From Thermoplasmata archaeon (lineage in GTDB: Archaea > Thermoplasmatota > E2 > DHVEG-1), in the NCBI GenBank assembly GCA_020054475.1, contig JAHWGJ010000003.1, forward strand, positions 30,141-94,140: a stretch of DNA of 64,000 nucleotides, given 5' to 3'. Positions 10,386 through 47,687 of the stretch are shown here, piece after piece; position 1 is the first letter of the stretch, and the number at the start of each line of letters is the position of its first letter. Position numbers and translations under genes: made by a program. Below the pieces are notes generated by a model, which searched no databases, was not told where the DNA came from, and saw only the letters and a program-made list of their open reading frames with translations.

Positions 10386-10411
10386 TGCAACTTTTGTAGC
10401 ATTTTAACTTG
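10386..10411 (-). promoter_or_regulatory. Shared island motif, copy 3 (TGCAACTTTTGTAGCATTTTAACTTG)
   Basis: 18/21 identity to copies 1 and 2, with the same dyad TGCAAC-N4-GTAGCA. It lies 91 nt upstream of the ATG at 10294 and 31 nt downstream of the flavodoxin-fragment stop. Confidence 0.45.
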
Positions 10412-10441
10412 CTGATTATGAATGAGATGGATAGGATTATA

Positions 10442-10729
10442 TTAGTTTTGCTTCAGTTTTTGAGCAAATTCTTTTGCATCGTTGATGTCCTCATCATTAG
10501 GTCTTCCTCTATTAGCAAACAAAAACTTACCCTTGCAAAAGAATTTTCCCTTGATGGAAGCATCCTTGGTAATAAGTAAATTTTCCATTTTTCTACATTC
10601 AAATCCTTCCCCTGAACCTGAAGTACCAAACAAAGCAACATTTCTTGATTTGAAATTATTATCTTTAATAAATTTCATCATAATTTTTGCAGGTTTACCA
10701 CCATAGCATCCAGAACCTAAATAAACCAA
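10442..10729 (-). pseudogene. Flavodoxin-family fragment (C-terminal two-thirds only)
   Basis: VYLGSGCYGGKP...VALFGTSGSGEG...RPNDEDINDAKEFAQKL matches the middle and C-terminal parts of short flavodoxin-like proteins. The N-terminal beta1/phosphate-binding loop is missing. The ORF opens with TTG and starts 8 nt from the integrase stop. Confidence 0.5.
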
Positions 10730-10736
10730 ACATTCA

Positions 10737-11768
10737 TTATTCAGTTTTGCATCTTGGACACTCGTTTGGTATTAATGGATTTTTAACAATCTCAGGTTTC
10801 ACATAACCTTGTTTTTCAACCTGAAGCAGAGTATTAGCTGCATCACGTCCACTAAGATGTATATACACCTCAGGCATACTTGAACTGCCAGTCCATCCTG
10901 CTAGAATCTTAAGAGTTGATTCATTCAAACCCTTCTTAGCTAAATCTGTAAGACGAGCATGGCGAAGTTTATGAGGACTAACTTTCTTTTTAATATCCGC
11001 ATCTTCAGCAGTGAATCGTACAATTCCATACACGCCACTAATCGTTAATCTCTTACCCCAAGTTGGAGTTGATTCAGAAACCCATAGAGGATATTTCTTA
11101 CTTAAACCAGAATTATTAAGTTTGTCTTTATATGGATGTATATCAAGCCACATTGAAAGATAATTTTGAGAGTTAATGAATCTAATAATTCTCTTACCAG
11201 TCTTGCCATCTACAACAATAAATGAGCCATTTTCATCAAACTCGATATCGTTAATATTCATCCCAACAAGTTCACCAACTCTCACGGCACTATCATATAA
11301 AACTGAGATTATTGCTTTTCTTTGCACAGATTCTGCTTTGTTTATCATTAATTTTACTTCTTCTGGATTCAGGACTCCATTAGGAAAATCATTACCAGAA
11401 TTTGCATAACCTGTTTTAATCCACCTAACACACTCAGGATAATCATCAGTGTTATACAGCCATTTGAAAAAATTCTTCAAAATTGATTTACATATAGAAA
11501 GTGAGCTTGGTTTTAATTCGTTTTGTCGTTGAATTAAATATTCTTTAATGTCTTGTTTAGTAATTTCAATAAATGGTTTGTTAAAATATTTTGCAAATTT
11601 AATTAATTGCAATAATTTATTTTCACAAGTCTGATATGCTGAATTATTAAGAGAATTATCCTCATAATATTCTTTTAAAACATCTCTATGTTTAGCGGGT
11701 AAACTATCTAGCCTACTCAATAGAGCTTCCGCTGATTTGTACATGATTTCACCAACAAAATTCATCAA
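10737..11768 (-). CDS. Tyrosine recombinase / phage-type integrase (XerC/D-like)
   Basis: Catalytic signature: ...DSAVRVGEL (Arg I), HKLRHARLT (His-x-x-Arg II), LAGW (Trp/His III) and EVYIHLSG (Tyr nucleophile). It also has an N-terminal SAM-like DNA-binding domain. Confidence 0.85.
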   Translation of the reverse strand: MMNFVGEIMYKSAEALLSRLDSLPAKHRDVLKEYYEDNSLNNSAYQTCENKLLQLIKFAKYFNKPFIEITKQDIKEYLIQRQNELKPSSLSICKSILKNFFKWLYNTDDYPECVRWIKTGYANSGNDFPNGVLNPEEVKLMINKAESVQRKAIISVLYDSAVRVGELVGMNINDIEFDENGSFIVVDGKTGKRIIRFINSQNYLSMWLDIHPYKDKLNNSGLSKKYPLWVSESTPTWGKRLTISGVYGIVRFTAEDADIKKKVSPHKLRHARLTDLAKKGLNESTLKILAGWTGSSSMPEVYIHLSGRDAANTLLQVEKQGYVKPEIVKNPLIPNECPRCKTE

Positions 11769-13041: not shown

Positions 13042-15240
13042 ATGGGTAAGAAAGAAGATAATATCAAGAAAGCTAAAAATTTAATGAATAAATTAGAATA
13101 TATTCGTAATATTGGTATTGCTGCACATATTGATCACGGTAAAACTACTCTATCTGATAATCTATTAGCAGGTTGTGGAATGATGAGTGAAGATCTTGCG
13201 GGTAAACAATTAGTACTGGATTTTGATGAACAGGAACAGGACAGAGGAATAACAATAAACACAGCTTCTGCTTCAATGGTACATGATTTTAGAGGAAAAG
13301 AATATCTTATAAATCTTCTTGATACTCCAGGACATGTTGATTTTGGTGGTGATGTAACTCGTGCAATGCGTGCTGTTGATGGATGTGTTGTAGTTGTATG
13401 TGCAGTTGAAGGTGCTATGCCACAAACAGAAACTGTAGTTAGGCAAGCATTGAAAGAAAAAGTTAAACCTATTTTATTTATAAATAAAGTTGATAGATTA
13501 ATTAATGAATTAAAAGTAACTCCTGAAGAAATGCAACAACGTTTTGTAAAAATAATTGCGAAATTCAATGATCTTGTAAATAAGATGGTTCCTGAAGAAT
13601 TTAAAAATAAATGGAACGTAAAAGTCGAAGATGGCAGTGTTGCATTTGGATCAGCATATTATAATTGGGCAATATCTGCACCATATATGAAAACCTCCGG
13701 ATTAAGTTTTAAAGATATTTATGACTATTGTGATAAAAATGATCAAAAAACCCTTTCGAAAAAAACGCCAATTCACGGAGTTTTACTGGATATGGTTGTT
13801 GATCATTGTCCTTCACCAAGAGAAGCCCAAAAATATAGAATACCCCACATTTGGCGTGGTGATCAAGAAAGCGAACTTGGTAAAAGTATGATTCAAACAA
13901 AAGAAATTGGACCTCTTGCACTTATGGTTACAAAAATAGTTATGGACCCTCATGCTGGTGAAGTTGCTGTTGGTAGAATGTATAGTGGAAAAATAGCTAG
14001 AGGACAAGAAGTATACGTTGTTGGAATGCCAAGATTAAATCGAATACAACAAGTAAATTTAATGGTTGGTGCTGATAGAATTCCTGTAGAATACGTAAGT
14101 GCTGGTAACATTGTAGCTTTAACGGGGATTAAAGATGCTTTTGCAGGAAGCACAGTAACAGATGATCCAGATTCCGAACCATTTGAGCGTATAGTACATG
14201 TATCTGAACCAGTAGTTACAGTTGCTGTTGAAGCAAAACATACAAAAGATTTACCAAAATTAATTGAAGTTCTCCGGATGGTATCAAAAGCTGATCCAAG
14301 TATTCAGGTAAATATTAACCAAGAAACTGGAGAAAATTTAATGTCAGGAATGGGTGAACTTCACCTTGAAATTACTGAATATAGAATAAAAAATGAATAT
14401 GGTGTTGAAATAGTTTGTTCAGAACCAATAGTCGTTTATCGTGAATCCATAGCTAAAAAAACACCCCATAAATTCGAAGGTAAATCCCCAAATAAACACA
14501 ATAGATTCTATATCCAAGCAGAACCACTTCCCGAAAATATTGTAAAATCATTATATAATAATGAAATACCAAATAATGTTAAAAAACATAAAAAAGATGT
14601 TATAAAAATTTTACAAGAATTAGGTATGGATAAAGAAACCGCTAAAGGAACATTTGCAATTCAAGGATTGAATTTATTAACTGATGTTACAAAAGGAATT
14701 CAATATCTATCCGAAACTCATGAACTAATAGCACAATCCTTTGAAGAAGTAATGAAAAGTGGACCAATTGCCTCTGAACCTTGCCAAGGAATGCTAATAA
14801 GACTAGTAGATGCAAAGCTTCACGAGGATGCTATACACAGAGGTCCAGCACAGGTTATACCCGCAGTTCGTAATGCAGTTTACGGAGCTATAGTAAGTTC
14901 AGATCCAATTCTTCTTGAACCTATGCAAAAAGTATTTATTAGTACTCCTCAAGATCTAATGGGGGATGCTTCAAAAGAACTTAACCAAAGAAGATCTGTT
15001 GTAAAAGATATGCTATCTGAAAGAGATATGGTAAATATAGATGCGAAAGCCCCTGTTGCTGAGATGTTTGGATTCGCATCATCGATTCGATCAGCAACTG
15101 GTGGTAGAGTACTATGGAATACTGAAAATCTTGGGTTTGAACCTTTACCTAGAAATTTACAAAATCAAATAGTTACACAAATTAGAGAGAGAAAAGGATT
15201 AAAACCAGATCCCTTCCCTCCAGAATATTATATGGATTAA
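13042..15240 (+). CDS. fusA: Translation elongation factor aEF-2
   Basis: G-domain motifs [17 protein letters not shown] and NKVDR. The diphthamide-loop His sits in [12 protein letters not shown] prefer the [10 protein letters not shown] start at 13042 over the track's 13033. Confidence 0.95.
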
Positions 15241-17861: not shown

Positions 17862-18187
17862 GCGGGTGTAGAAATACTTTGAGTGGTTGCACGTTTCATC
17901 TATTGACTACCCATTTGCATTCTCAACCCCGTTAACCCTTCGAGCATCGGCAGTTTACAGTAAGGCTGCTCACTTCCGTGCCTCACCCGATTTCTGCAAT
18001 AAAGATGCATATATGACCCTCCGATCATATATAATCATCACCTCCAATCCCAAAGGACAGGGTCTCATTGTCAACAAATGGATCAACAAATGCTCGTTAC
18101 ATCGCCTCTTAGTTTCAACTCCAGCATAAAGGCGTTTTCTGGTAACAGGGAACGCCTACCTCCCCAGTCTATTCTACACCTTTCGCC
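17862..18187 (-). ncRNA. Signal recognition particle RNA (archaeal 7S/SRP RNA)
   Basis: A GC-rich block in an AT-rich context. The minus strand reads GGCGAAAGGUGUAGAA...GGGGAGGUAGGCGUUCCCUGUUACCAGAAAACGCCUUUAUGCUGGAG (archaeal Alu-domain helices 2-4 pattern). It also carries the helix-8 motif GUGAGGCACGGAAGUGAGCAGCC (GGAA tetraloop plus AGCAGC symmetric loop). The 5' and 3' ends pair (GGUGUAGAA / UUCUACACC). End coordinates are approximate to within a few nt. Confidence 0.85.
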
Positions 18188-26690: not shown

Positions 26691-26870
26691 TTTTAATCTC
26701 CCCTCAAAATGTCTATATCAAAATTCCTTTTATTAGTTCTAAATTATTGTCTAATAGATAGATTATCAAACATAAATAATTTACTTATTTTTAATAATCA
26801 AACAATAAGCTTTTAAAAAGCAACAAGATTACCCTGAATCAGAGTTAGATATATTGGAAGGGAAATTATA

Positions 26871-27389
26871 ATGATAGCATTTATTGTTACATCTATACTT
26901 TGTTTCGTAATCTATTTACTTTTAACTACTGGTAGTGGAACCTTTGGATTATGGAGCTTGGAAGAAATTCTATTAGGCATTATCCTCTCATTAATAACTG
27001 GTTTTATAACAAGAAAAATATTCATAAAAAAAGATTTCAGAATGTTAAATCCTATTAGATGGCTTATTTTTCTTGTTTATATTATTGGTCCTTTTTTTAT
27101 TGGTATGGCAAAATCAAATATTGATGTTGCTTATAGAGTAATTACGGGAAAAATAAATCCAGGTATTGTAAAAATAACTCCAGACTTAAAAACAGATTTA
27201 GGGATAACATTATTAGCAAATTCTATAACTTTAACTCCTGGAACCTTAAGCGTTGATATCGATGAAGAAAAAAATAATCTATATATTCACTGGATTAATG
27301 TTGATGAGAAAAAATTAAAAGGAGATACTGTTGAAACAAAATATGTTTGTGGAAATTTTGAAAAATGGGTAAGGAGGATAACTGAATGA
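26871..27389 (+). CDS. mnhE: Mrp/Mbh membrane module subunit E (MnhE/MbhA-like)
   Basis: 172 aa with LLANSITLTPGTLSVDID, an MnhE-type motif. First gene of the coupled operon. Confidence 0.8.
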   Translation: MIAFIVTSILCFVIYLLLTTGSGTFGLWSLEEILLGIILSLITGFITRKIFIKKDFRMLNPIRWLIFLVYIIGPFFIGMAKSNIDVAYRVITGKINPGIVKITPDLKTDLGITLLANSITLTPGTLSVDIDEEKNNLYIHWINVDEKKLKGDTVETKYVCGNFEKWVRRITE

Positions 27390-27655
27390 TTGATTATTTT
27401 AATGTGTATATAATTGTCTTAATTGCTCTTTTAATCTGTGTTATATTAGCAATTATCAGAGTTGTTCTAGGACCTACAGCACCCGATCGGATAGTAGGAT
27501 TAGATACAATAAATACAATTGTAATCTCTAGCATGGTTATTTTTGGTGCTGCTTTTAGGGAGATTATCTATATTGATGTAGCAATTGTATATGCGCTACT
27601 TTCATTTATTTCAACATTATTTATAGCTAAATATCTAGAAGGAGGAGATTTCTAA
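27386..27655 (+). CDS. mnhF: Mrp/Mbh subunit F (MnhF/MbhB-like)
   Basis: 89 aa, 3 TM, with LGPTAPDRIVGLDT. ATGA overlap with the upstream gene. Confidence 0.8.
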   Translation: MIDYFNVYIIVLIALLICVILAIIRVVLGPTAPDRIVGLDTINTIVISSMVIFGAAFREIIYIDVAIVYALLSFISTLFIAKYLEGGDF

Positions 27656-28059
27656 TGTTAGGATTAATTATTGATATTATTGTTTATATATTCCTAATCA
27701 TAGGAGTTTTCTTTAGTTTCCTTGCAGGTTTTGGATTACTAAGATTTCCTGATGTTTATACCAGATTACATGCTGGAACAAAATGTACTACTTTTGGTTC
27801 AATCTTTATTACAGGATCAGTCATAATTCTTGGTTTAAAAATGTGGTATTTAGGTAGTGCCGATGGATCTGTTTTGGCTATTCATACGGCAGGAGCTTTA
27901 ATTGCAATTCTTCTTACAAATCCAACAGGAGCTCATGCAATTGCTCGAGCTGCTCATAAAAGTGGAGTCAAACCTGTTGGTGCAGTTGTTGATGGATTGG
28001 ATAAAGTTAACGGAAAAACTATAAAATATCAAAAAGAAAAAATGGAGGAGAAAAAATGA
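27655..28059 (+). CDS. mnhG: Mrp/Mbh subunit G (MnhG/MbhC-like)
   Basis: LRFPDVYTRLHAGTK motif. TAATG overlap with the upstream gene. Confidence 0.85.
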   Translation: MLGLIIDIIVYIFLIIGVFFSFLAGFGLLRFPDVYTRLHAGTKCTTFGSIFITGSVIILGLKMWYLGSADGSVLAIHTAGALIAILLTNPTGAHAIARAAHKSGVKPVGAVVDGLDKVNGKTIKYQKEKMEEKK

Positions 28060-28307
28060 TTTTAGATGCGATTCATATTTTATTACCTATATTGATTATT
28101 GCATCATCATTATTCGCTGTTCTTCTTAAAGATTTGATAGCAGCTGCTATTGCTGTTGCAGCAATGAGCTTATTACTTTCTCTAGAATTTTTCATTCTCC
28201 AAGCACCTGATGTTGCTATAGCTGAAGCTGGGGTAGGAGCGTGCCTAACTACTGCAATTTTAGTAATTGCAATAAAATCTACCAAAAGAATGGAGGATGA
28301 AAAATAA
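28056..28307 (+). CDS. MbhD-like subunit (DUF4040; derived from the MrpA C-terminal region)
   Basis: 83 aa, 3 TM, with [18 protein letters not shown]. Confidence 0.7.
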
Positions 28308-28579
28308 TGTCCAAAAGAAATTTATTTGCATTAATATTTTTCGTAATAATGGCTGTATTTTTATTTATTAGTTCTCTTATGATGCATCCTTTTGGTAATC
28401 CTGAAAAAACAAATATGGATGATGAAATAATCGAAAATGCTCAAATTGAAACTGGTACTAATAATGGTGTCACATCTGTTGTTTTTGATTATAGAGGTTT
28501 TGATACTCTTGGTGAAGCTACAATTTTATTCACTGCAGTTGCTGGTGTTATTATGATTTTCAGGAGGATGAACAAATGA
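28307..28579 (+). CDS. MbhE-like small subunit (MnhB-related)
   Basis: 90 aa with [28 protein letters not shown]. Confidence 0.7.
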
Positions 28580-29049
28580 ATGGGATGTCTAGAATTGTAA
28601 AAACAATTGCAAGTATTACTTTTCCTTTAGTCATGATATATGGTTTATATATTATTGCTCATGGACATTTAACACCAGGTGGAGGCTTTCAAGGTGGTGC
28701 AGTTGTTGCATCGGGATGTGCAATGATTTTAATTGCATATGGTTCAGTTTGGACATTAGGAAAAATAAAGGAAAAAAATCTTTCAATCCTTGAAAGCGTT
28801 GGAGCGATTTGTTTTATTACATTAGCTATACTTGGACTTGGATTTGGGACAGTATTTTTTAAGAATTTTTTAATTGGTTCAGAAATCATATTCGGCATTA
28901 TACCTTCTTTTGGATCAACAATTTCAAATATTAATACTGCTGGAGTTATTCCTTTGATGAATTTTGCTGTTGGTTTAAAAGTTATTGCAGGTTTATTTGG
29001 TATTGTTCTCATAATGGCTTATGCCAGTACTAGGAGGGATAAATATTGA
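28576..29049 (+). CDS. mnhB: MnhB/MbhF-like subunit
   Basis: [14 protein letters not shown] motif; 157 aa, 4 TM. Confidence 0.8.
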
Positions 29050-29402
29050 TATTTAATTTCCCTTTTATCGCAGTCATCGCATTAATTATTATTGGACTAT
29101 ATGCAATGGTTTTTAGAAAAAATTTAATTAAAATGGTTATTGGAATTACTATTATTCAAAGTGGTGTTAATCTATTTTTAATTACATTAGGATATAGAGA
29201 AGGTTCAGTTGCCCCTATTTTTACTAGTTTGCCTTCAGGTACAGAAATTCCTCAAGGCATGGCTTTTCCTGTTCCTCAAGCTTTAACACTTACAAGTATA
29301 GTCATTGGTGTAGCTGTTCTTGCTTTGATGCTTTCTTTAATCATCCATATTTATCGACATTATGGTACTTTAGATGTTAGAAAAATTGGAGGGGAAAAAT
29401 GA
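29046..29402 (+). CDS. mnhC: MnhC/MbhG-like subunit (NuoK-like)
   Basis: 118 aa, 3 TM, with the pattern NLIKMVIGITIIQSGVNLFLI...PQALTLTSIVIG. Confidence 0.8.
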   Translation: MIFNFPFIAVIALIIIGLYAMVFRKNLIKMVIGITIIQSGVNLFLITLGYREGSVAPIFTSLPSGTEIPQGMAFPVPQALTLTSIVIGVAVLALMLSLIIHIYRHYGTLDVRKIGGEK

Positions 29403-30970
29403 GTTTTATTGATTTTTTATTACAACATTCTCCCGCATTAATTGTTGCTATACCGCTACTTGGTGCTTTTTTAACACCTCTAATAAGTAAGATAAATAAT
29501 AGAGTTAGAAATGTTTTTGTAATTCTTATTATTTTAATTACAACAATTTTAGTTATGTTACTAGCGTCAGATGTTTTTTCTGGAAATATTCACACTTATG
29601 TATTTGGATCACAAGATTTAACCGTACCTTTAGTGAGAATATTATTTGAAGTTGATGCAATGAGTGCTTTTATGGCCATCATTGGATCAATATTACTCCT
29701 TGTTTCTGTAATTTATTCTTGGTCATTCATTGATGAAAATTCTGGACTTGATAAATATTACACTTTAGTATTGTTATTAGCTGCTGGTATGTTTGGAATG
29801 ATGCTTACTGGAGATATGTTTAATTTCTTTGTATTTCTTGAAATTACATCAATTGCTTCTTGTGCATTAATTGCATTCTGGACAAATAAAGGTAAAGCAG
29901 TTGAGGCAGCTTTTAAATATATCGTTATAAGTTCTTTAGCTGCTCTTTTTATTTTATTTTCAATTGCATTACTATATGGACAATATAATGCATTAAATAT
30001 TGCGGTTCTTGGGAGTGTTATTCAATTTTCATATCTTGATAAAATTGCCTTAGTCTTACTTATTGCTGCTTTAGCTATGAAAGCTGGTATCGTACCAATG
30101 CACATGTGGCTTCCAGATGCTTATGGTAGAGCACCGGCTTCAGTTACAATTATACTCATCGGAGCAACTCAAGCAAGTTTATACGGTGTTTTTAGAGTTT
30201 GTTTTACTTTATATGGAAATACAATAAATCTTTCATCCGCGTCAATTGGCTGGATTATTGTGTTATTAGGTTTAATAACTATGTTGATTGGTGTTGCTAT
30301 GGCATTAATACAATCTGATTTTAAGCGATTAATAGCATTTAGTGCCGTTGCGGAAATTGGATTTATATTTTTAGGTATTGGAACAGGTTTGACATTATTC
30401 GCGAATAATCAGATGTTTGGTTTAATCGGTACAACTGCAATGAGTGGAGGTATTTTTCATATTATAAATGATTCATTGGATGTTGGATTATTATTCCTTG
30501 TCGCAGGTGCAGTATATTATGCCACAAAAGAAACATCATTAGATAAGATGGGTGGTCTTGCTAGACATATGAAATATACTACGATTTTCTTTATAATAGG
30601 ATTACTTGCAATATCAGGTATTCCTCCTATGAATGGTTTTGCTTCAAAATTATTAATTTATGAGTCAACTTTTCAACTAAACCCAATTTTATCTATTGTT
30701 GCTATACTTTCAAGTATAATGTTACTGGCAGTATTTGTAAAAGTATTTCACTCCGCATTTCTTGGACCTGCCCTACCGAAATTTAATGGAGTAAAAGAAG
30801 TTCCAAAAACAATGTTATTTGCTATGGGAATAATCGCATCAATTATAATCATATTTGGTTTATTTCCAGATTTAGTAATTAATAATATTGTTGATCCTGC
30901 TGTTAATGCATTAATCAATTATAGCGATTATATTAGAGAAGTAATTCCAACGTTTACTGGAGGTTTTTAA
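29399..30970 (+). CDS. mnhD: MnhD/MbhH-like antiporter subunit (NuoL/M/N family)
   Basis: 523 aa, about 14 TM, with KAGIVPMHMWLPDAY and SGIPPMNGFASK, both hallmarks of complex-I antiporter-like subunits. Confidence 0.88.
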   Translation: MSFIDFLLQHSPALIVAIPLLGAFLTPLISKINNRVRNVFVILIILITTILVMLLASDVFSGNIHTYVFGSQDLTVPLVRILFEVDAMSAFMAIIGSILLLVSVIYSWSFIDENSGLDKYYTLVLLLAAGMFGMMLTGDMFNFFVFLEITSIASCALIAFWTNKGKAVEAAFKYIVISSLAALFILFSIALLYGQYNALNIAVLGSVIQFSYLDKIALVLLIAALAMKAGIVPMHMWLPDAYGRAPASVTIILIGATQASLYGVFRVCFTLYGNTINLSSASIGWIIVLLGLITMLIGVAMALIQSDFKRLIAFSAVAEIGFIFLGIGTGLTLFANNQMFGLIGTTAMSGGIFHIINDSLDVGLLFLVAGAVYYATKETSLDKMGGLARHMKYTTIFFIIGLLAISGIPPMNGFASKLLIYESTFQLNPILSIVAILSSIMLLAVFVKVFHSAFLGPALPKFNGVKEVPKTMLFAMGIIASIIIIFGLFPDLVINNIVDPAVNALINYSDYIREVIPTFTGGF

Positions 30971-31327
30971 ATGGCAATATTTGAATCTTTGTTAAATACA
31001 TTTGAAACTGGTAGTGGTTTTTGGAATCCAATTGTTTGGTTGGTAACAATATTAATTATATTCCTAATAATATATATTTTGAGAGGTTTTGGTAATAAGA
31101 ATTATAAAATTAATACAGAGCAAGTAAAACCATTTCTATCAGGTAATCCAGAATATGATAAAGAAAAAATGCATATCAAAGGTAGCAATATCTATTGGGG
31201 TTTTACTGAATCATTAAAATGGATATTTGATAATCTTAATAAAATGCATACTGGAAATACTAGTGATTATATCCTATGGTTTGTGGTTATTATTTCCATT
31301 TTATTTTTAGTGGTGGGGTTGATTTAA
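30971..31327 (+). CDS. MbhI-like subunit (TM - amphipathic lateral segment - TM)
   Basis: 118 aa. Its position (between the H-like and M-like genes), size and topology match MbhI. No sequence motif was verified. Confidence 0.5.
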   Translation: MAIFESLLNTFETGSGFWNPIVWLVTILIIFLIIYILRGFGNKNYKINTEQVKPFLSGNPEYDKEKMHIKGSNIYWGFTESLKWIFDNLNKMHTGNTSDYILWFVVIISILFLVVGLI

Positions 31328-32383
31328 ATGGATTTGGCTGTTGTTTCGCAAGCTGCATTAATTACAATAATTGGGGCAATAGGAGTTACAATATTTGGAT
31401 TAATTTTTGGTTTATTTTATAAGGGTGTTGATCGTAAATTATCTGCACATATGCAAGGAAGGATAGGGCCACCATTAAAACAGCCTTTTTTAGATGTGAT
31501 TAAGTTATTTACTAAAGAGAATATAGTGCCTGAAAATGCCATTTCATGGGTTTTTAACTTTGTACCATTGATAGGACTAGTTGCAACTATCTCAATCATT
31601 CTATATTTACCTATTGCAGGATTTGATCCCCTATTGTATAATAAAGGTGACCTAATTCTAATTTTATACTTATTAATAATACCCTCCCTTTCAATGGTTA
31701 TAGGAGGTTTTTCATCGGGATCACCATATGCAACTATTGGTGCACAAAGGGAAATGGCTACAATGATAGCATATGAATTCCCACTTGCTATAATAATAAT
31801 CAGTATTGCTTGGAAATTAAGTATTGATGGTGTCTCAAATGTTTTCTCTTTATCCTCAATTATCGCAGCCCCTATTTGGAGTACTGTAGGACCCTTAGGT
31901 TTTATCGGATTTATTATTCTTCTACTTTCGTTAATTATAGTGACTCCTGCTGAACTATCAAAAATTCCATTTGATTCACCTGAAGCTGAAACAGAGATTG
32001 CGGGGGGTTTATTGGTAGAATATTCAGGAAGGAATTTAGCAATGTTTTATTTAACCGATGGTGTAAAAACAATTGTTATGGCCTCACTTATTGTTGCTTT
32101 ATTCTTCCCATATAATTTATCGCCATTACTAGGATTAGAAAGTTATTTAGCCTTTAGCGTTGACATTATATTTTATTTAATAAAAATACTTCTCGTTATA
32201 CTATTCTCAGTTACATTAATCAGAGTTGCAATTGCTCGTTTAAAGATAGATCAAATTGTTTATACATATTGGGTTCCAATAACATTGTTAAGTTTGGTTG
32301 GATTAATCTGCATAATGTGGGATCAAACTATAATGACAAATTTTGGATTAGAACCATTATTTAAGATGATAGGTTTAATTTAA
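31328..32383 (+). CDS. NuoH/MbhM/HycD-like membrane subunit (complex I subunit 1 family)
   Basis: 351 aa, about 8 TM, with RKLSAHMQGRIGPPLKQPFLDVIKLFTKE and PFDSPEAETEIAGG, both canonical NuoH-family motifs. Confidence 0.85.
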   Translation: MDLAVVSQAALITIIGAIGVTIFGLIFGLFYKGVDRKLSAHMQGRIGPPLKQPFLDVIKLFTKENIVPENAISWVFNFVPLIGLVATISIILYLPIAGFDPLLYNKGDLILILYLLIIPSLSMVIGGFSSGSPYATIGAQREMATMIAYEFPLAIIIISIAWKLSIDGVSNVFSLSSIIAAPIWSTVGPLGFIGFIILLLSLIIVTPAELSKIPFDSPEAETEIAGGLLVEYSGRNLAMFYLTDGVKTIVMASLIVALFFPYNLSPLLGLESYLAFSVDIIFYLIKILLVILFSVTLIRVAIARLKIDQIVYTYWVPITLLSLVGLICIMWDQTIMTNFGLEPLFKMIGLI

Positions 32384-32470
32384 TAATATAAATTATTTTT
32401 TCTTTCTTTTTTATTTTATTTATATCATAACAGTATTAAATTGTTCCATAATAAGGTGTTTTGAAATAAA

Positions 32471-33400
32471 ATGGGAAAAATAAATTATTTAAGCAATAAT
32501 TTTTCTTGGATATTTGTAATTCTTCCAACAATTTTTATAATAATTGGTTTAATATTTTTCACATACCCAATTCCAAAACTCATTGAAAATCTTATTACTA
32601 TTCCATTATTTATTGGACTGGGATTACTTTTTATTGGTTTCTTTATTAAAAAAGAATTTTTTGGAAATAAAATAAAAATTATTGGTTGGATTTTATTTGC
32701 CTTTTATTGGGCAACAAGAATTAATACATTATATTTTGCTGAACAGCAAGATTTTGTAAATGCAATTTTATGTATAATTGGAATATATGTTTTATTTTAT
32801 TTTGCATATCATGAATGGTATTCTATTAAAATTAAGAAAAATATAAAAAGTTTAAATTGGATTGCTGGAGCATCCTCATTTTCTGGTCTAATATATTTTA
32901 TTATAGAACTAACCCCCCTTGCAATAATTTTAATTGAAATCGTAGCAGCTCAAAGTGGATTTCTTTTAGATATATTCATAAACGGCGTTAACGTAGAAGG
33001 CAGATATATATTATATGAACTTGCTTATATAAGAATAATTTTTGCCTGTACAGCTATACAATCAATGGTAATTTTTATTGGAATGATACTCCCACTTAAA
33101 AATGTTGAAATTAAAAGAAAGATTTATGGTTTGCTTATAACAGTATTACCCGTATATTTCTTAAATCTTATCAGAAATGCTGGCATCACTTATTTAATAG
33201 GATCTAACATCACAGATTTCTATACAGCACATAATATTATAGGAAAGGGTGGAAGTCTCATAGCATTAATTATCTTATTAGTTATTGTAGTCAAAATTGT
33301 ACCTGAGGTATTTGATGAGATAATTTCTTTGACAGATCTTCCAAAAAGAGAAGGCCCAATTGAAAAACAATTTAAAAAATTATTAGGAGTAAAAAAATAA
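32471..33400 (+). CDS. Archaeosortase-family transpeptidase
   Basis: 309 aa, polytopic. The candidate catalytic triad sits in IFACTAIQSM (Cys), NLIRNAGITYL (Arg) and TAHNIIGKGGS (His). The subfamily (ArtA-G) cannot be assigned by eye. Confidence 0.75.
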   Translation: MGKINYLSNNFSWIFVILPTIFIIIGLIFFTYPIPKLIENLITIPLFIGLGLLFIGFFIKKEFFGNKIKIIGWILFAFYWATRINTLYFAEQQDFVNAILCIIGIYVLFYFAYHEWYSIKIKKNIKSLNWIAGASSFSGLIYFIIELTPLAIILIEIVAAQSGFLLDIFINGVNVEGRYILYELAYIRIIFACTAIQSMVIFIGMILPLKNVEIKRKIYGLLITVLPVYFLNLIRNAGITYLIGSNITDFYTAHNIIGKGGSLIALIILLVIVVKIVPEVFDEIISLTDLPKREGPIEKQFKKLLGVKK

Positions 33401-34045
33401 ATGAAATTTGCAAAAGGTACATATTCATGGATTATATCTCCTTTTATTTTATTTATTTTATTTATTTTTCTATTAGTTTTTTATCCCACATATCAAAATC
33501 AATTTTTAATTATTTCAATAATGTTTCTCCTTATAACAGTATTATTTATAATATTCTTTAGAGACCCCGAAAGAAAAATTGGTAAAGATATTGTTGCACC
33601 TGCCGATGGATATATAAGAGATATATATGAAATTGATGATGTCGATATTGGAAAATGTATAATTCTATCAATTTTTATGAATATTCAAAATGTTCATGTC
33701 AATCGAATGCCGATTGATGGTATAATCAAGGAAGCAATTCATTTACCGGGATCTCATTTACCAGCCTTTAAAAAAGAATCAGAAAAAAATGAAAGATTCA
33801 TAATTAAAATAAAAACTTCTATTGGTATGATAAAAATTACTCAAATTGCTGGTACTCTAGCAAGAAGAATTGTGCCATATATTAAAAAAGATGATATTAT
33901 AAATAAAGGTGAAAAGATTGGGATAATAAGATTAGGATCTCGTGTAGATCTTTATCTACCTAATAGTAAAAATTTGAAAATTAAAGTTAAAAAAGGAGAC
34001 AAGTTAAAGGCGGGGGAAAGTAGTGTTGCAAAAATATATGATTAA
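33401..34045 (+). CDS. psd: Archaetidylserine/phosphatidylserine decarboxylase proenzyme (short type)
   Basis: 214 aa with an N-terminal TM. Contains VHVNRMP and the self-cleavage site region GIIRLGSRVDLYLP (G-S). Confidence 0.85.
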   Translation: MKFAKGTYSWIISPFILFILFIFLLVFYPTYQNQFLIISIMFLLITVLFIIFFRDPERKIGKDIVAPADGYIRDIYEIDDVDIGKCIILSIFMNIQNVHVNRMPIDGIIKEAIHLPGSHLPAFKKESEKNERFIIKIKTSIGMIKITQIAGTLARRIVPYIKKDDIINKGEKIGIIRLGSRVDLYLPNSKNLKIKVKKGDKLKAGESSVAKIYD

Positions 34046-34712
34046 ATTATTATCTATCGCGGATTTTATTTCAATATCCAATGCTATTCTTGGTTTCCTT
34101 GCAATCATTATGCTTTTCTTAAATGAAATACATTATTCATTTTCACTGATTTTATTAGCCATGATAACAGACGGAATTGATGGTTTAGTCGCAAGAAGGA
34201 CAAAACATAGCAATTTAGGAGAGTATATGGAAGCAATGGGCGATATGATATCTCTTGTAATTGCACCAGCTTTATTCGTATATCAAACATATAGTAAAGA
34301 TATAATTATATCAAATAATAATATTCAACATTTATTATTAATACTAGTTTTAACTATTTTTTTATTTTTTAATATTATTCGACTTAGTTCATTTCATATA
34401 ATGAAAGAGAAAAAAATTTTTATTGGACTCCCCGCTTCAGCAAGTACAATAATAATATTAATAATTTCATATTTAAAAATTGAATATATTTATCTTACTA
34501 TAATATTATTAATTATATCATTTATGCTTATATCAAACATTCGTTTTCCAAAACCAAATCATATAATAAATTTAATAGCAACAGCATTAATAATTATTTC
34601 AATATTAATTGGAAAACAATTTAATGGAATCGCACTGTTACTATTATTAGTTGCAATTATGATTTATTCAATTTTAGGGCCAGTATATATCTACAAAATT
34701 AAAAAGCAATAA
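34038..34712 (+). CDS. pssA: CDP-alcohol phosphatidyltransferase (archaetidylserine synthase-like)
   Basis: DGIDGLVARR...G...D motif (D-x2-DG-x2-AR...), polytopic. The ATG at 34038 overlaps the psd stop by 8 nt. The track's start at 34023 is a GTG. Confidence 0.8.
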   Translation: MIKLLSIADFISISNAILGFLAIIMLFLNEIHYSFSLILLAMITDGIDGLVARRTKHSNLGEYMEAMGDMISLVIAPALFVYQTYSKDIIISNNNIQHLLLILVLTIFLFFNIIRLSSFHIMKEKKIFIGLPASASTIIILIISYLKIEYIYLTIILLIISFMLISNIRFPKPNHIINLIATALIIISILIGKQFNGIALLLLLVAIMIYSILGPVYIYKIKKQ

Positions 34713-42999: not shown

Positions 43000-43482
43000 C
43001 TAATTTTTATTCAAATTTTTTTTTAAAAATGATATAATTTCATTAATGTCAGGTAATTGAGAAATTTCATAGATTTTTGCATAAATTATTTTCTGATTTT
43101 CATCAATTATAATATTTGCTCTTTCAGAAAAACCTTCTTTTTCTCTAAAGATATGATATAATTTTGCAACTTCCCCATGAGGCCAAAAATCAGATAATAA
43201 ACTTGTATTTTTGATATTGAGAGATTTTGCCCATGCATTTTTAGAAGGTATGGAATCAATATTTATTCCAACAGCAATAGTGTTTAATTCTTTAAAGGTT
43301 TCATAATTTTTTTCTAATGATTTCATCTGTTCAGCACAGATACCTGTCCATGCAAGAGGATGAAATGATAATAAGATTTTTTTACCTTTAAAATCTGATA
43401 ATTTAAACTCTTCTTTATTATGATCCTTTAAAATAAAATTAAAGGCTTTCTTATCTACTAGATTTTTTTCTTCATTAGTCAT
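43000..43482 (-). CDS. Peroxiredoxin (AhpC/TSA-redoxin family)
   Basis: 160 aa with FHPLAWTGICAEQ, the peroxidatic Cys context. Confidence 0.75.
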   Translation of the reverse strand: MTNEEKNLVDKKAFNFILKDHNKEEFKLSDFKGKKILLSFHPLAWTGICAEQMKSLEKNYETFKELNTIAVGINIDSIPSKNAWAKSLNIKNTSLLSDFWPHGEVAKLYHIFREKEGFSERANIIIDENQKIIYAKIYEISQLPDINEIISFLKKNLNKN

Positions 43483-43494
43483 ATTAAAACCACA

Positions 43495-43932
43495 TCAGTT
43501 TATTTCATTTAGTCTATCAATAATCAATTTTTTATCTGAATCAGATAATGACTGATCTAATTTTGGATATACCTCATTTTCTTCGAAAATTTTGTGATTA
43601 ATTAAAACTTTTTTAAACTTGAAAAATCCATCGATTTTATTCTTATTAACTAAATCTTTTCTCCAGTTAGATAATTGATTTAAGATAAAATTATGCTGTT
43701 TTGTAAGCTCAGGAAGCATTCGATATCCTTCTGTAACATCCTCAGGATTATAGTTTGTAAATATTACCTTTTCTTCAGAAAAAATATGTTTTTCTAACTT
43801 CCATTCAAATTTTGTAAATGATTTTTTCATCACTTCATAATCTTTATCAATATCTCTTTCAAAATCATCCATTAATTTTTCAATTATATTATGATCGTTA
43901 ACCATTCGTGGCATAATATTATTATCACTCAT
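43495..43932 (-). CDS. Hemerythrin-like (HHE cation-binding) domain protein
   Basis: 145 aa with spaced H/E ligand motifs (DHNIIEKLMDDF, EKHIFSEEKV, QHNFI, NHKIFEENEVYP). Confidence 0.65.
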   Translation of the reverse strand: MSDNNIMPRMVNDHNIIEKLMDDFERDIDKDYEVMKKSFTKFEWKLEKHIFSEEKVIFTNYNPEDVTEGYRMLPELTKQHNFILNQLSNWRKDLVNKNKIDGFFKFKKVLINHKIFEENEVYPKLDQSLSDSDKKLIIDRLNEIN

Positions 43933-43950
43933 TTTTTCACCATCTAAAAA

Positions 43951-44796
43951 TTAAATCCATTCTTCTTTGAGAATATCTCCTTTAATACTTACAATTATTG
44001 ATTTAATTGGTATTTTCCTATTTGCCTTCCTAGATGCTTCTCTTGCAAGATTTAATAATCCGCTGCAACAAGGCACTTCCATTGTCATAACTGTAAGAGT
44101 ATTAATTTTTGCGTTATCAATTAAAGATATTAATTTTGATAAATAGATTTCAATATTTGAATCAAGTTTAGGACAAGCTATCGAAATACTTCTATTTTTT
44201 AGATATTTTTCATGAAAATTCGCCATTGAATAAGCAACACAATCAGCAACTAATATAACATCTTTTGATTGAAAATATGGTGCATTAGGAGGGACTAAGT
44301 GTAATTGAATAGGCCATTGTCTCAATTGAGATTTTGTATCAATTGAATCTACATCTTCATTCTGTTTTTCATTTGAAAAATCCATTACTTTTGATCCGGG
44401 GCATGCAGAAAAATTACATTCTTTATTAACATCTTTCTCTTCTAACTCAATTTCAATTTCTTTTTCTTTCAATACTTCCATTGCTTCATTATAGTAATCT
44501 ACTTCCCCGTGCTCTTTTAAATGTTTTAAGTGGGCAATTATTGTATTTTTGCCCGCTTTAACAATATTTCCCATCGTTTTTCTCTCACTATACTCTTCAG
44601 CCTCTCTTTCCTCAGTTGTAATTGCATCTTGAGGACAATGTCCAATACAAGCCCCAAGACCATCACAAAAAATATCGCTAATTAATCTTGCTTTTCCATC
44701 GATAATTTGAATAGCTCCTTCAGGACAATTTGGAATACAAACTCCACATCCATTACATTTATCTTCATCAATTTTTATTATTTTTCTTTTCAGCAT
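43951..44796 (-). CDS. 4Fe-4S dicluster protein with a Cys-rich C-terminal domain (Hcp-associated)
   Basis: CNGCGVCIPNCP and CDGLGACIGHCP ferredoxin motifs. The C-terminal part has ADCVAYS...CPKLD...VPCCSG. Confidence 0.75.
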   Translation of the reverse strand: MLKRKIIKIDEDKCNGCGVCIPNCPEGAIQIIDGKARLISDIFCDGLGACIGHCPQDAITTEEREAEEYSERKTMGNIVKAGKNTIIAHLKHLKEHGEVDYYNEAMEVLKEKEIEIELEEKDVNKECNFSACPGSKVMDFSNEKQNEDVDSIDTKSQLRQWPIQLHLVPPNAPYFQSKDVILVADCVAYSMANFHEKYLKNRSISIACPKLDSNIEIYLSKLISLIDNAKINTLTVMTMEVPCCSGLLNLAREASRKANRKIPIKSIIVSIKGDILKEEWI

Positions 44797-44805
44797 AAAA
44801 TTTAC

Positions 44806-46428
44806 CTATGCAACTAGTTTTAAATTTTTGAGATCATTTTCAATAGTAGTATTTGGTTTAATGTTAAAGTTTTCTACTAAAACATTCAAAACATTCTTTG
44901 ATACAAAAGCAGGTATTTTTGGACCAAGAATAATATTTTTTACACCAAGAGACAATAAAGCCAATAAAACTAAAAACGCCTTTTGTTCATACCATGCTAT
45001 ATTGTAAATAATTGGTAGGTCATTAATATCAACTTTTAATATCTCTGACAATTTCTTTGCTATAACGACCAACGAATACGAATCATTACATTGACCCGCA
45101 TCAATTACTCTTGGTATTCCACCAATATCCCCCAATTTCAATTTATTATACCGATATTTTGCACAACCTGCAGTAAGAATTACTGAATCACTTGGTAATC
45201 TCTTTGCAAATTCAGTATAATAATCTCTTTCCTTATGACGTCCATCACATCCTGCCATAACAACAAATTGTTTGATGTCACCAGATTTTATTGCATTTAA
45301 AATTTTATCTGCAGAGTTTATCAAAGTGTTATGAGCAAAACCAATTGTAATATTCCCCTCCTCAAGTTTTTCGGGGGATTTACATTTTTTTGCATGATTA
45401 ATAATTGAAGAAAAATCTTTCTGTTTACCCTTTGTTCGTTCAGGAATATATTTTAAATCTTCAAAACCAACAACGCCTGTTAAATACACTCTATCCTTAT
45501 AAGATTCTTTTGGAGGAACTAAACAATTTGATGTCAAAAGAATTGGCCCATTAAATTTATCAAATTCATCCTTTTGTTTCCACCATGAATTACCATAATT
45601 TCCAATAAAATGTTTATATTTTTTAAAATATGGATAAGCATTTGAAGGTAACATTTCACCATGAGTATAAACATCTACACCAGTTCCTTCAGTTTGATAA
45701 AGTAATTCTTCAAGATCCTTTAGATCATGACCACTAATTAATATACCCGGATTATTTCCTACCCCAATATTAACATTAGTTGGTTCAGGATGACCATATG
45801 ACGAGGTATTAGCATCATCTAATAATGCCATTGTTTTTATACCATATTCTCCACATTTAAGCACAAGACTCGTTAATTCATCTGCCGATAAATTTTTAAT
45901 TGTAGCTGATAAACCTTCCTGCATAAAATCAAAAATTTCTTGATCTTTTTTACCCAGTTCATATGCATGATGTATATAAGCCGCCATTCCTTTTAAACCA
46001 TATGTTAAAAGTTGTCGAAGTGATCTAATATCCTCATTATCTGTTGATAAAACTCCAACTTCTCTTGCTTTTTTTAATATATCTTCATCATCTTTTGGAG
46101 TCCATGTAACTGCATCATAATCATGATTTATTGATATTTCATTATTAATTTCATCTCTTAATTTTATTGCTTCTTTAATTTTATTTAAAAAATATGTTTT
46201 ATTAAAATTAGTATTAGTTATTGTTGAAAATAATTCATTTGCAATAAATATATCCGCTTTTTCATTTTTTATGCCAAGTTTTTTTGCCTCAATATTACTG
46301 ATTGATATTCCTTTTAATACATATATTAGCATATCTTGTAAGATTGCAACTTCATCTTTTTTTCCACATACTCCTGCAACTGTACATCCTTCACCTTTAT
46401 TTGTTTCTTCACATTGATAACAAAACAT
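44806..46428 (-). CDS. hcp: Hybrid cluster protein / hydroxylamine reductase
   Basis: N-terminal MFCYQCEET...GCT..GVCGK cubane motif; about 540 aa. I prefer the start at 46428 over the track's 46443. Confidence 0.92.
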
Positions 46429-46532
46429 AATTTTACACCTCAAATTAATATATTTAACTTAAGTATCTTTTTTATACCAAATATGTAATATGTAGTTAAG
46501 TATTTATAGTTATTAGTTTCTATATAGATACC

Positions 46533-46892
46533 ATGGATGAAGATTGTACAGTATATAAAACAATGGAGTATCTCTCAAAAAAATGGTCACTAATAATCTT
46601 ATTAGAGATATATAGAGGAAAATATAACCAAAAAAGATATTCAGAAATAAAAAATAAAATTCCAAACATATCACCAAAAATATTATCATCAAGATTAAAA
46701 GAATTAGAAAAGGAGGGGATTATTAATAAAAAAATCGATACATCCACTTTTCCAGTCAAATGTGAATATTCACTAACAGGGAGTGGAGAGGATATTATCA
46801 ATATTATAAAAAATATAAAAAATTGGTCATTAAAGTGGAAAATAAAGAATCAGATATGTGAAGAAAAAAATTGTAAAGATTGTGATTTATAA
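46533..46892 (+). CDS. HxlR-family winged-helix transcriptional regulator
   Basis: CTVYKTMEYLSKKWSLIILLEI...YSEIKNKIPNISPKILSSRLKELEKEGII. It is divergent from hcp. Confidence 0.85.
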   Translation: MDEDCTVYKTMEYLSKKWSLIILLEIYRGKYNQKRYSEIKNKIPNISPKILSSRLKELEKEGIINKKIDTSTFPVKCEYSLTGSGEDIINIIKNIKNWSLKWKIKNQICEEKNCKDCDL

Positions 46893-46893
46893 T

Positions 46894-47271
46894 CTAAGAT
46901 TTCCACAATCCATGCATATTACAATATTCTCTTGCACTAACATTATCTGCTTCAATTAAAAATTCTGCCTCAGGTTTATCTCCGGGTTTTAAAAATTTTC
47001 TATATGCAACACCATCAGCTATTACTTGAATCCATTCTATATAATGCTCATCAGTCATTGGATGATCCTGATTTTGTCCAATTTTTACTAAAATTCCACT
47101 CATAGTTTTTTCAATATATGGAACATGTTTTTCAACAGATGAATCATCATTTTTTTCTTCAAGAAGTTTCATTTCTTCATTACAACACACTAGAGATCCA
47201 CCTCCAGTATGAAGAACCTCAACTATATTCCCACAAATTTCACATTTGTATATTTCTCTTAATTTAGTCAT
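46894..47271 (-). CDS. dfx: Desulfoferrodoxin (2Fe superoxide reductase)
   Basis: N-terminal desulforedoxin centre ([12 protein letters not shown]...LVCC) and a centre II region (KHVPYI...[11 protein letters not shown]...CNMHGLW). Confidence 0.9.
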
Positions 47272-47283
47272 ATTATCATCCCT

Positions 47284-47664
47284 CTATTTCTTTTTATTTT
47301 TATAATCTTTAATTGCCTCTTGTAGGGCATCTGCAGCAAGATTTGAACAATGCATTTTTTGTGGAGGTAAACCATCTAATTCATTTGCAACATCATTTCT
47401 TGTAATTTTAAATGCTTCATCAACGTGTTTTCCTTTTGCTAACTCAGTAATCATACTGCTTGTAGCAATTGCAGATCCACACCCAAATGTTTTAAATTTA
47501 ATATCTGTAATTATATCATCTTTTATTTTGATATAAATCTCCATTAAATCCCCACAAACAGGATTTCCTACTTTTCCATATCCATCTGGATTCTCTATTA
47601 CACCAACATTTCTTGGATTTGTAAAATGCTCCATTACTTTCTTACTATAACCAACATTTGCCAT
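47284..47664 (-). CDS. iscU: Fe-S cluster scaffold IscU/NifU-like
   Basis: Three ligand cysteines in NPVCGD, FGCGSAIA and MHCS. Confidence 0.9.
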   Translation of the reverse strand: MANVGYSKKVMEHFTNPRNVGVIENPDGYGKVGNPVCGDLMEIYIKIKDDIITDIKFKTFGCGSAIATSSMITELAKGKHVDEAFKITRNDVANELDGLPPQKMHCSNLAADALQEAIKDYKNKKK

Positions 47665-47687
47665 TTTCTATAACCTCATTAATTATC

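Follow-up and report, generated by a model that had tools for sequence, protein, structure and literature searches.

Encoding a membrane arm apart from its catalytic genes raises the question of what the arm works with, or whether it works with anything at all. We studied such a case in a 64-kb stretch of DNA (hereafter, the window), which comes from a very low-GC (28%) member of Thermoprofundales (MBG-D, Thermoplasmatota). The original prediction recognized a ten-gene Mrp-like operon ending in a NuoH-like gene and offered three readings: a peripheral arm encoded elsewhere, a different and unrecognized soluble partner, or a redox-independent complex, the last two being undescribed. Our results uphold the first and ordinary one, and neither of the others is needed. 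We are confident that this operon supplies the membrane arm of a group-4d [NiFe] membrane-bound hydrogenase (MBH), namely MbhA-I together with the NuoH-like MbhM, and that mbhJKL and mbhN have been excised to another locus.

A compact operon without catalytic genes

The ten ORFs lie on the plus strand between 26871 and 32383, in the order MbhA-B-C-D-E-F-G-H-I-M (window ORF check). They are coupled at every junction, as had been claimed: by 4-nt overlaps of the ATGA type (A/B, C/D, E/F, F/G, and G/H), by 1-nt overlaps (TAATG; B/C and D/E), or by 0-nt gaps (H/I and I/M). GGAGG-like ribosome-binding sites precede nearly all of the starts, the exception being mbhM, which has only GTGGGG. The start of MbhG was placed at the TTG at 29046 because its homologs align from there. 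A TATA-like box (TTTTAAAA) stands about 45 nt 5' of the mbhA start, within a putative promoter region. The operon likely ends at the 87-nt gap, which could act as a terminator, and the next gene encodes archaeosortase A (TIGR04125, 111 bits, cutoff 75), as anticipated. The features are as follows.

26691..26870 (+): A/T-rich upstream intergenic region, diverging from thyX; putative promoter (sequence inspection)
26871..27389 (+): MbhA, MrpE/MnhE-like, 172 aa (PF01899, 132 bits; PRK08383, 230 bits, cutoff 192)
27386..27655 (+): MbhB, MrpF-like, 89 aa (PF04066, 71.7 bits; 4-nt overlap with mbhA)
27655..28059 (+): MbhC, MrpG-like, 134 aa (PF03334, 82 bits; TIGR01300, 101 bits)
28056..28307 (+): MbhD, MrpA C-terminal-like, 83 aa (PF13244 MbhD, 62 bits)
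28307..28579 (+): MbhE, MrpA C-terminal-like, 90 aa (PF20501 MbhE, 38 bits)
28576..29049 (+): MbhF, MrpB-like, 157 aa (PF04039, 92 bits; PRK08386, 150 bits, cutoff 92)
29046..29402 (+): MbhG, MrpC/NuoK-like, 118 aa, TTG start (PF00420, 93 bits; alignment with the homolog in L006)
29399..30970 (+): MbhH, single antiporter-like (MrpD/NuoN-type) subunit, 523 aa (PF00361, 169 bits)
30971..31327 (+): MbhI, 2-TM, 118 aa (NCBIfam NF053600 MbhI equivalog, 120.7 bits, cutoff 95)
31328..32383 (+): MbhM, NuoH/ND1 family, peripheral-arm docking subunit, 351 aa (NADHdh PF00146, 226 bits, cutoff 27)
32384..32470 (+): T-rich intergenic gap, 87 nt (TTATTTTTTCTTTCTTTTTTATTTTATTT); likely operon end (sequence inspection)

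Pfam and NCBIfam profiles assign all ten genes to families (MNHE, MrpF_PhaF, and PhaG_MnhG for MbhA-C, MnhB for MbhF, Oxidored_q2 for MbhG, and Proton_antipo_M for MbhH), which confirms the Mbh-type set and order and the NuoH-family assignment of the last gene. The catalytic genes were sought across the whole window by tblastn, using E. coli HycE/G/F and NuoB/CD/I/E/F/G, P. furiosus MbhL, and MbhJ/K/L/N of one Thermoplasmatota relative as queries. In agreement with the original prediction, these searches revealed no NuoB/C/D/I homologs in the 64 kb. The NuoH-like gene was the only match (E. coli HycD/NuoH, E values of 1e-23 to 1e-25), bar a generic 2x[4Fe-4S] domain protein at 43951-44796 on the minus strand (E values of 2e-4 to 0.03), which scores below every NuoI-type cutoff. 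The gene of this protein adjoins one for a hybrid-cluster protein.

The arm is of the MBH type

Among solved structures, the chains of P. furiosus MBH score about twice as high as those of MBS, FHL, Mrp, and complex I. The best match of MbhM is 6cfw_M (207 bits, versus 105 for MBS and 97 for FHL HycD), and that of MbhH is 6cfw_H (354 bits, versus 171 for the MBS chain 6u8y_H and 155 for MrpA). The locus shares with P. furiosus MBH (mbhA-N; PDB 6CFW) the subunit families and their order, including matches to the models specific for MbhD, MbhE, and MbhI. The P. furiosus genes form one contiguous 14-gene operon, whereas here JKL and N are excised, and the host is a mesophilic, low-GC organism.

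Other members of this broad family fit less well. Canonical Mrp antiporters (MrpA-G; PDB 6Z16, 7D3U, 7QRU) share the MrpE, F, G, B, C, and D families with the window, and the homologous arm reportedly works as a Na+/H+ antiporter in E. coli KNabc. Yet they lack MbhI and a NuoH-family subunit, both present here, and the MbhD and MbhE pieces, which resemble the C-terminal part of MrpA, are separate genes. Such an antiporter is ruled out by the single PF00361-type gene, the lack of a full-length MrpA in the ten-gene set (the absence of MnhA noted originally), and the presence of the PF00146 gene. MBS/Mbx (PDB 6U8Y) combines, like MBH, an Mrp-like module, a NuoH-like subunit, and a NuoB/C/D/I-like arm. 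It is ruled out by the single MbhH, with no second antiporter-like subunit, and by the halved scores; furthermore, MbsL lacks the NiFe cysteines, all four of which are present in MbhL from relatives. Complex I and Fpo, characterized by a NuoA/J/K/L/M/N membrane set and a quinone or methanophenazine module, were also rejected, since the NuoH and FpoH models give 144 and 139 bits (cutoffs of 305 and 475) and the set has no NuoL/M/N trio.

A complete operon at the same site in relatives

Four contigs from relatives (L006-L009) carry DUF424, Mut7-C, RibD_C, and ThyX, then MbhA-I-J-K-L-M-N, a small ORF, ArtA, PssD, and PssA, with NTPase_1 and TRM further downstream. Their synteny is that of the window, and their subunits are 58-75% identical to the window's. 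In these complete operons mbhN occupies the slot after mbhM, where the window has its 87-nt gap. Hence, the locus in the window is that operon minus mbhJKL and mbhN. MbhM is 69% identical to its counterparts in the complete operons, a divergence no greater than that of the other arm subunits. The ten-gene arm followed by ArtA also occurs in L001, L002/L003, L174, and L159, and thyX and artA flank the arm in all the relatives examined.

The catalytic cassette and its whereabouts

In dozens of related genomes, an mbhJKLN cassette that keeps all the NiFe ligands lies away from the arm. About 27 of the 79 metagenome loci have the order J-K-L-N and lack an mbhM between the last two genes (all four genes are visible in 19), and among the 80 loci from GTDB species genomes, 68 consist of J-K-L-N alone. 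The latter type includes the MAGs SG8-52-3, SM1-50, M9B1D, and M11B2D, which have been named as Thermoprofundales (PMC6461988). Cassette GC ranges from 0.29 to 0.47, and genes for HypC, HypD, HypE, HypF, and a HycI-like protease lie beside it. Neither ERICGIC nor DPCMSCTNR varies across 19 sequences of this type. MbhL of the MAGs bin38 and Zod_Metabat.1159 has the NiFe cysteine ligands and the proton-donor Glu, with E21, C68, C71, H75, C374, and C377 (P. furiosus numbering) all present; E20K is a change relative to P. furiosus. In metagenome loci, cassette MbhL shares 67-77% identity with its counterpart in the syntenic complete operons (72% for bin38), and the cassette in the MAGs has diverged from that operon to a degree similar to the arm (identities of J 81, K 54, L 72, and N 67%, versus 58-75% for the arm).

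Two MAGs contain both halves, although co-occurrence within a MAG rests on binning. The closest relative found, bin38 (JAJISJ01), matches the window at 95% identity in MbhM and at 85.5% in DNA over 13.4 kb. Its arm is on contig 8 (L159; GC 0.27) and its intact JKLN cassette, beside hypE, on contig 13 (L120; GC 0.29). The other MAG, Zod_Metabat.1159 (JAFGDG01; GCA_016932245.1), carries its arm on contig 49 (L002) and JKLN on contigs 3 and 140 (L121, L155), all with a GC of about 0.41; the two JKLN copies are divergent, with no blastn similarity between them, which could reflect paralogy or contamination. Linkage independent of binning comes from four contigs in which JKLN adjoins the arm genes in a rearranged order. 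Two of them show all 14 genes on one strand, J-K-L-N-A-B-C-D-E-F-G-H-I-M (L154, L156); the other two (L018, L126) read J-K-L-N-A.. up to the contig edge. The original prediction had named a complete and co-regulated JKLN-like cluster elsewhere in the genome as the finding that would make the locus a split but ordinary enzyme, and clusters with all four genes are present in the MAGs of relatives. Judging from the congeneric MAG, the genome of the window probably carries mbhJKLN as well.

Do the two halves still work together?

The conservation of the docking subunit MbhM, whose examination had been proposed, bears on this question. Across 121 split-type MbhM sequences, conservation is 0.887 at hydrophilic loop positions and 0.733 at TM-like positions. 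The top invariant 8-mers fall in the TM1-2 and TM5-6 loops (MQGRIGPP, PAELSKIPFD, EYSGRNLAMFY), and E150, within AYEFPLAI, aligns to P. furiosus Glu141M. Because the cytoplasmic loops of MbhM are its best-conserved parts, the two halves probably still assemble. MbhH keeps the P. furiosus residues K225, H346, and K409, as well as the TM5 Glu. Its central hydrophilic axis differs from that of P. furiosus (K256T, H350D, K354V), so its ion-translocation chemistry may differ from that of the model enzyme. These substitutions are also found in the complete-operon relatives L006 and L010, which makes them a trait of the lineage and not a consequence of the split.

We propose that a 14-gene mbhA-N operon stood ancestrally between thyX and artA, and that mbhJKL (between mbhI and mbhM) and mbhN (3' of mbhM) left it in the lineage of the window. 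The departed genes would have formed the mbhJKLN cassette at another locus, beside hypE, hypF, and the gene of the HycI-like protease. Ferredoxin reduced by the fermentation of peptides or 2-oxoacids would pass electrons to MbhN, and FeS clusters in MbhN and MbhJ would relay them to MbhL, at whose NiFe site H2 would be made. The JKLN module would dock onto MbhM and MbhI at their cytoplasmic loops, coupling the redox reaction to ion translocation by MbhH and to Na+/H+ exchange by MbhA-G.

The arm could instead be an autonomous Mrp-type Na+/H+ antiporter, with MbhM as a structural subunit only, and MbhJKLN a separate soluble four-subunit ferredoxin-dependent hydrogenase (Zhang et al. 2022). We regard this as rather unlikely. 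Zhang et al. report that the arm alone improves the growth of the Na+/H+-antiporter-deficient E. coli KNabc at 0.1-0.2 M NaCl and that the metatranscriptomic levels of the two arms differ, from which they argue for independent function (PMC9585477); the modules also lie apart in most of the related genomes. However, the loops and E150 of MbhM being most conserved in the split lineage is hard to explain without a partner. MbhI is retained, and in the structure from P. furiosus (PMC8679088) the loop of this subunit reaches MbhL. The adjacent, same-strand modules in the four contigs also weigh against independence, and docking is compatible with antiporter activity of the arm. It is improbable that the source genome lost mbhJKLN entirely, leaving behind a relic or an ion translocator that works without redox chemistry. 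The lack of NuoB/C/D/I homologs in the 64 kb is consistent with such a loss, as is the report that only 71.2% of Thermoprofundales genomes have MbhL (PMC9585477), though many of those are incomplete MAGs. Against it stand the intact cassette of bin38 and ten intact, tightly coupled genes with ribosome-binding sites. Least probable is that a different, unrecognized soluble module sits on MbhM in place of the hydrogenase. The absence of catalytic genes from the window is its sole and indirect support; a cognate JKLN whose divergence is similar to that of the arm is found in the same MAGs, and comparing the flanks of the relatives revealed no candidate partner gene conserved beside the arm.

Relation to the published split

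The split arrangement in the window is real but not new, as it was already published in 2022 for these sediment archaea. Zhang et al. (Mol Biol Evol 39:msac213, PMC9585477) described a division into MbhABCDEFGHIM and MbhJKLN in Thermoprofundales Subgroup E. The window shares with that system the ten genes, their order ending with MbhM, the phylum, and the lineage; with a peripheral arm at a separate locus and its NiFe ligands kept, we see no essential difference between the two. Relative to the main text of that paper, our analysis adds the shared synteny of the window and the complete operons, the hyp genes around JKLN, the adjacent and rearranged JKLN-A..M clusters, and the conservation of the MbhM loops.

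RESULTS

A membrane arm without catalytic genes

The locus comprises ten ORFs, which correspond to the membrane half (hereafter the arm, MbhA-B-C-D-E-F-G-H-I-M) of the membrane-bound [NiFe] hydrogenase (MBH). Neighboring genes overlap by 4 nt (A/B, C/D, E/F, F/G, and G/H) or 1 nt (B/C and D/E), or abut with a 0-nt gap (H/I and I/M). Nearly all of the starts have a GGAGG-type ribosome-binding site in front of them, the exception being MbhM, which has only GTGGGG. The seventh gene starts with the TTG at 29046, the same codon at which homolog alignments begin. Searches of Pfam and NCBIfam gave the following assignments.

Genes of the arm, window 26871-32383 (+)
Genes 1-3: MnhE, MrpF, MnhG
Genes 4-6: MbhD, MbhE, MnhB
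Genes 7-8: NuoK/MnhC-like, Proton_antipo_M
Gene 9: MbhI (NF053600, 120.7 bits, cutoff 95)
Gene 10: NADHdh/NuoH (PF00146, 226 bits)

There is a single antiporter-like gene and no MrpA in this arm. All the details of anatomy and order that we checked in the original prediction were correct, and the profile search places the last gene in the NuoH family, as had been proposed.

The absence of NuoB/C/D/I-like genes from the 64 kb, claimed from reading the sequence, was borne out when the whole window was searched by tblastn with E. coli HycE/G/F and NuoB/CD/I/E/F/G, Pyrococcus furiosus MbhL (sequence reconstructed from the 6cfw_L alignment), and MbhJ/K/L/N of a Thermoplasmatota relative. No homolog of these catalytic subunits was found in the window, the matches being limited to the NuoH-like gene and a generic ferredoxin-domain protein at 43951-44796. 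The latter, a 2x[4Fe-4S] (Fer4) protein adjoining the hybrid-cluster protein Hcp, was rejected as a NuoI/MbhN ortholog. Matches to HycE at 3677-3952 (E 0.14) and to HycG at 13270-13374 (E 0.03) are at chance level.

The arm is followed by a T-rich gap of 87 nt and by genes for archaeosortase A (ArtA; TIGR04125, 111 bits), phosphatidylserine decarboxylase (PssD), and CDP-alcohol phosphatidyltransferase (PssA) at 32471-34712 (+). This trio, which resembles the ArtA/PssD/PssA set for lipid anchoring in Haloferax, is conserved beside split and complete mbh operons alike. Elsewhere in the window, we observed two PQQ/beta-propeller proteins, a PKD-domain protein, and a tyrosine recombinase of the phage-integrase family (4306-11765, -), upstream of the ribosomal S12-S7 genes, and an archaeal SRP RNA (17866-18179, -).

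Origin from a complete operon

Homologs of the NuoH-like protein fall into more than 2,400 clusters, of which the best 120 are all at least 72% identical to it; the named ones carry the label Candidatus Thermoplasmatota. Related contigs (L001, L002/L003, L174, and L159) share these ten genes, preceded by thyX and followed by artA-pssD-pssA. A search with P. furiosus MbhL, followed by the look-up of a Thermoplasmata match, led to four further contigs (L006-L009), in which this neighborhood holds the mbhA-N operon in full, with all 14 genes: DUF424, Mut7-C, RibD_C, ThyX, A-I, J, K, L, M, N, a small ORF, ArtA, PssD, and PssA, and beyond these NTPase_1 and TRM. Subunit identity between the arm of the window and theirs is 58-75%. 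Since the synteny is the same, the window locus is an ortholog of the 14-gene operon. In the lineage of the window this operon has been cleanly stripped of mbhJKL, which stood between mbhI and mbhM, and of mbhN, which followed mbhM.

The catalytic half is encoded elsewhere in relatives

The catalytic half, the JKLN cassette (MbhJ/K/L/N), was found on other contigs in two arm-carrying metagenome-assembled genomes (MAGs) of relatives. The closest relative found, bin38 (JAJISJ01), has the arm on contig 8 (L159; GC 0.27) and JKLN on contig 13 (L120; GC 0.29), adjoining hypE. It shares 95% identity with the window in MbhM, 90-97% across the ten subunits, and 85.5% at the DNA level over 13.4 kb. E21, C68, C71, H75, C374, and C377 (P. 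furiosus numbering) are all present in its MbhL. The second MAG, JAFGDG01 (GCA_016932245.1), carries the arm on contig 49 (L002) and JKLN on contigs 3 and 140 (L121 and L155), all with a GC of about 0.41. The two cassettes are divergent, with no blastn-level DNA similarity; they may be either true paralogs or bin contamination, a caveat for evidence based on shared MAGs.

Linkage independent of binning comes from contigs where the two halves are adjacent. In L154 (9058-17287) and L156 (681-8911), J-K-L-N and A-B-C-D-E-F-G-H-I-M follow each other on one strand, about 200 nt apart. The same J-K-L-N-A.. order is seen in L018 (8412-15866) and L126 (401-5359), where about 900 nt separate N from A and the contigs end at MbhH and MbhD, respectively. 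These re-ordered clusters could plausibly represent a step from the canonical A-N operon toward fully separate loci.

We also scanned metagenome contigs with a Thermoplasmatota MbhL alignment and used tblastn to class the loci. Of 79 loci, about 27 (GC 0.31-0.52) have J-K-L-N with N straight after L and no M, all four genes being visible in 19, and the membrane arm is absent from their flanks, up to 10 kb, in all except L018. The ERICGIC and DPCMSCTNR motifs are kept in the MbhL of all 19 cassette sequences examined. A single scan of GTDB species genomes, using a chimeric alignment (one pattern from the window MbhM, one from a split-type MbhL), gave 80 loci: 68 with JKLN only, three with J-K-L-N-A.. 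on one strand (two of these reaching M), six with a lone MbhL, and one each with the ten-gene arm (L159), the complete operon, and a short MbhL-MbhN fragment. An MbhL of the Subgroup E type is encoded on the closed MAG chromosomes CP070798.1, CP070724.1, CP070712.1, and CP070836.1. Two MbhL matches picked as split-type by low GC and identity (P0176 and P0217) turned out to belong to complete 14-gene operons. A possible physical linkage suggested by the equal length (34,438 bp) of the contigs of P0080 and L134 was rejected as coincidence, L174 and L134 having no blastn similarity.

Four cassette loci (L027:7883-13813, L050, L120:5730-11640, and L121:7395-18267) lie in a neighborhood of genes for hydrogenase maturation. 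On the upstream side are hypE and the gene for a HycI-like protease; hypF is immediately downstream (L027, L050, and L121), and hypD a few kb away (L050 and L121), with hypC alongside in L050. Genes for anaerobic ribonucleotide reductase and thioredoxin reductase are found further upstream in L120 and L121.

An orphan MbhL in oxidative-stress operons

A paralog of MbhL (408-417 aa) stands alone in contigs other than that of the window (L038:9983-11221; also L139, L150, L151, L157, L158, and L163), with no MbhJ/K/N beside it. Its NiFe motifs, R[IV]CGICSY and DPCMSCTNR, are intact, and the copies are 83-88% identical among themselves and 77-80% identical to cassette MbhL. The gene row is constant and operon-like: a 134-aa protein, two rubrerythrin-like genes, MbhL, and desulfoferrodoxin, ending with SufC-like and SufBD-like genes where the contig reaches that far. 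Three MAGs with the orphan also have the normal JKLN locus. This paralog does not appear to be mentioned in the main text by Zhang et al. 2022 (PMC9585477). The window has a large oxygen/ROS-defense island of the cluster type that hosts the orphan in other MAGs; MbhL is absent from it.

Oxygen/ROS-defense island, window 43000-54100 (-)
Peroxiredoxin, hemerythrin, 2x[4Fe-4S] protein with Hcp (-)
HxlR regulator (+)
Desulfoferrodoxin, IscU, cysteine desulfurase, DsrE (-)
Three rubrerythrins, ferritin (-)
Flavodiiron protein, flavin reductase-rubredoxin, Fur-family regulator (-)

DISCUSSION

Of the three readings offered in the original prediction, the split locus is the one supported by our analysis. 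Given this split, neither an unrecognised soluble partner nor a redox-independent complex is needed. The arrangement is already known: in its text, the 2022 study of Zhang et al. (PMC9585477) describes an MBH cluster split into MbhABCDEFGHIM and MbhJKLN, reported as unique to Subgroup E of Thermoprofundales (MBG-D), together with functional tests. In these, E. coli KNabc grew better at 0.1-0.2 M NaCl when it carried the ten-gene arm, and recombinant MbhL evolved H2. Our JKLN-only matches include four MAGs (SG8-52-3, SM1-50, M9B1D, and M11B2D) that appear under Thermoprofundales in Zhou et al. 2019 (PMC6461988), which places the window lineage in this order. The residual novelty lies in side observations: the re-ordered contiguous clusters, the hyp neighborhood of JKLN, the MbhH substitutions, and the orphan MbhL of related MAGs.

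Do the two halves still meet? In the P. furiosus MBH (structure 6CFW), ferredoxin reduces MbhN and electrons go on to the NiFe site in MbhL; J/K/L are seated on MbhM, the "ankle"; the connection between active site and membrane domain runs through conserved loops in MbhM, MbhI, and MbhL; and H+ and Na+ are translocated by MbhH and MbhA-G (PMC8679088). Among 121 split-type MbhM sequences, the hydrophilic loops are more conserved than the TM-like positions (0.887 versus 0.733). Among 8-mers, invariance is highest in the TM1-2 loop (MQGRIGPP) and in the TM5-6 loop (PAELSKIPFD, EYSGRNLAMFY), and AYEFPLAI, with E150 aligned to Glu141M of the P. furiosus E-channel, is near-invariant. The window MbhM is 69% identical to that of complete-operon relatives and no more divergent from them than other arm subunits. 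Given the conservation of the loops and of E150, together with this ordinary divergence, the JKLN module probably still docks on MbhM in the split lineage. Zhang et al. 2022 argue in their text (PMC9585477) that the arms function independently. Antiporter activity of the arm alone is compatible with docking. Another, rather unlikely, scenario would make MBH a modular machine: the arm alone would work as an Mrp-type Na+/H+ antiporter, a separately regulated JKLN would join it at MbhM only when there is reduced ferredoxin to dispose of, and the orphan MbhL would be swapped in under oxidative stress in some lineages. The text of the 2022 study (PMC9585477) seems to describe neither regulated reversible docking nor alternative large subunits.

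The central axis of the window MbhH (29399-30970) differs from that of P. furiosus by K256T, H350D, and K354V, giving the motif HIINDSLDV, and retains K225, H346, K409, and the TM5 Glu. We considered these substitutions as a signature of a redox-independent arm and rejected this, since the complete-operon relatives L006 and L010 have them (L013 and L014 do not). They are thus a lineage trait and not an effect of the split, and the residues hint at a different ion chemistry in the MbhH of Thermoprofundales.

The split MBH is a natural experiment on the modular build of complex-I-type machines: an Mrp-like ion translocator keeps its NuoH-type docking subunit and is encoded apart from the redox module. 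The contiguous re-ordered JKLN-A..M clusters, the altered MbhH axis, and the orphan MbhL in oxidative-stress operons provide handles on the question of assembly. The mode of assembly of the two halves, be it constitutive, conditional, or lacking altogether, bears on models of the coupling between redox chemistry and ion pumping in the MBH/complex I superfamily.
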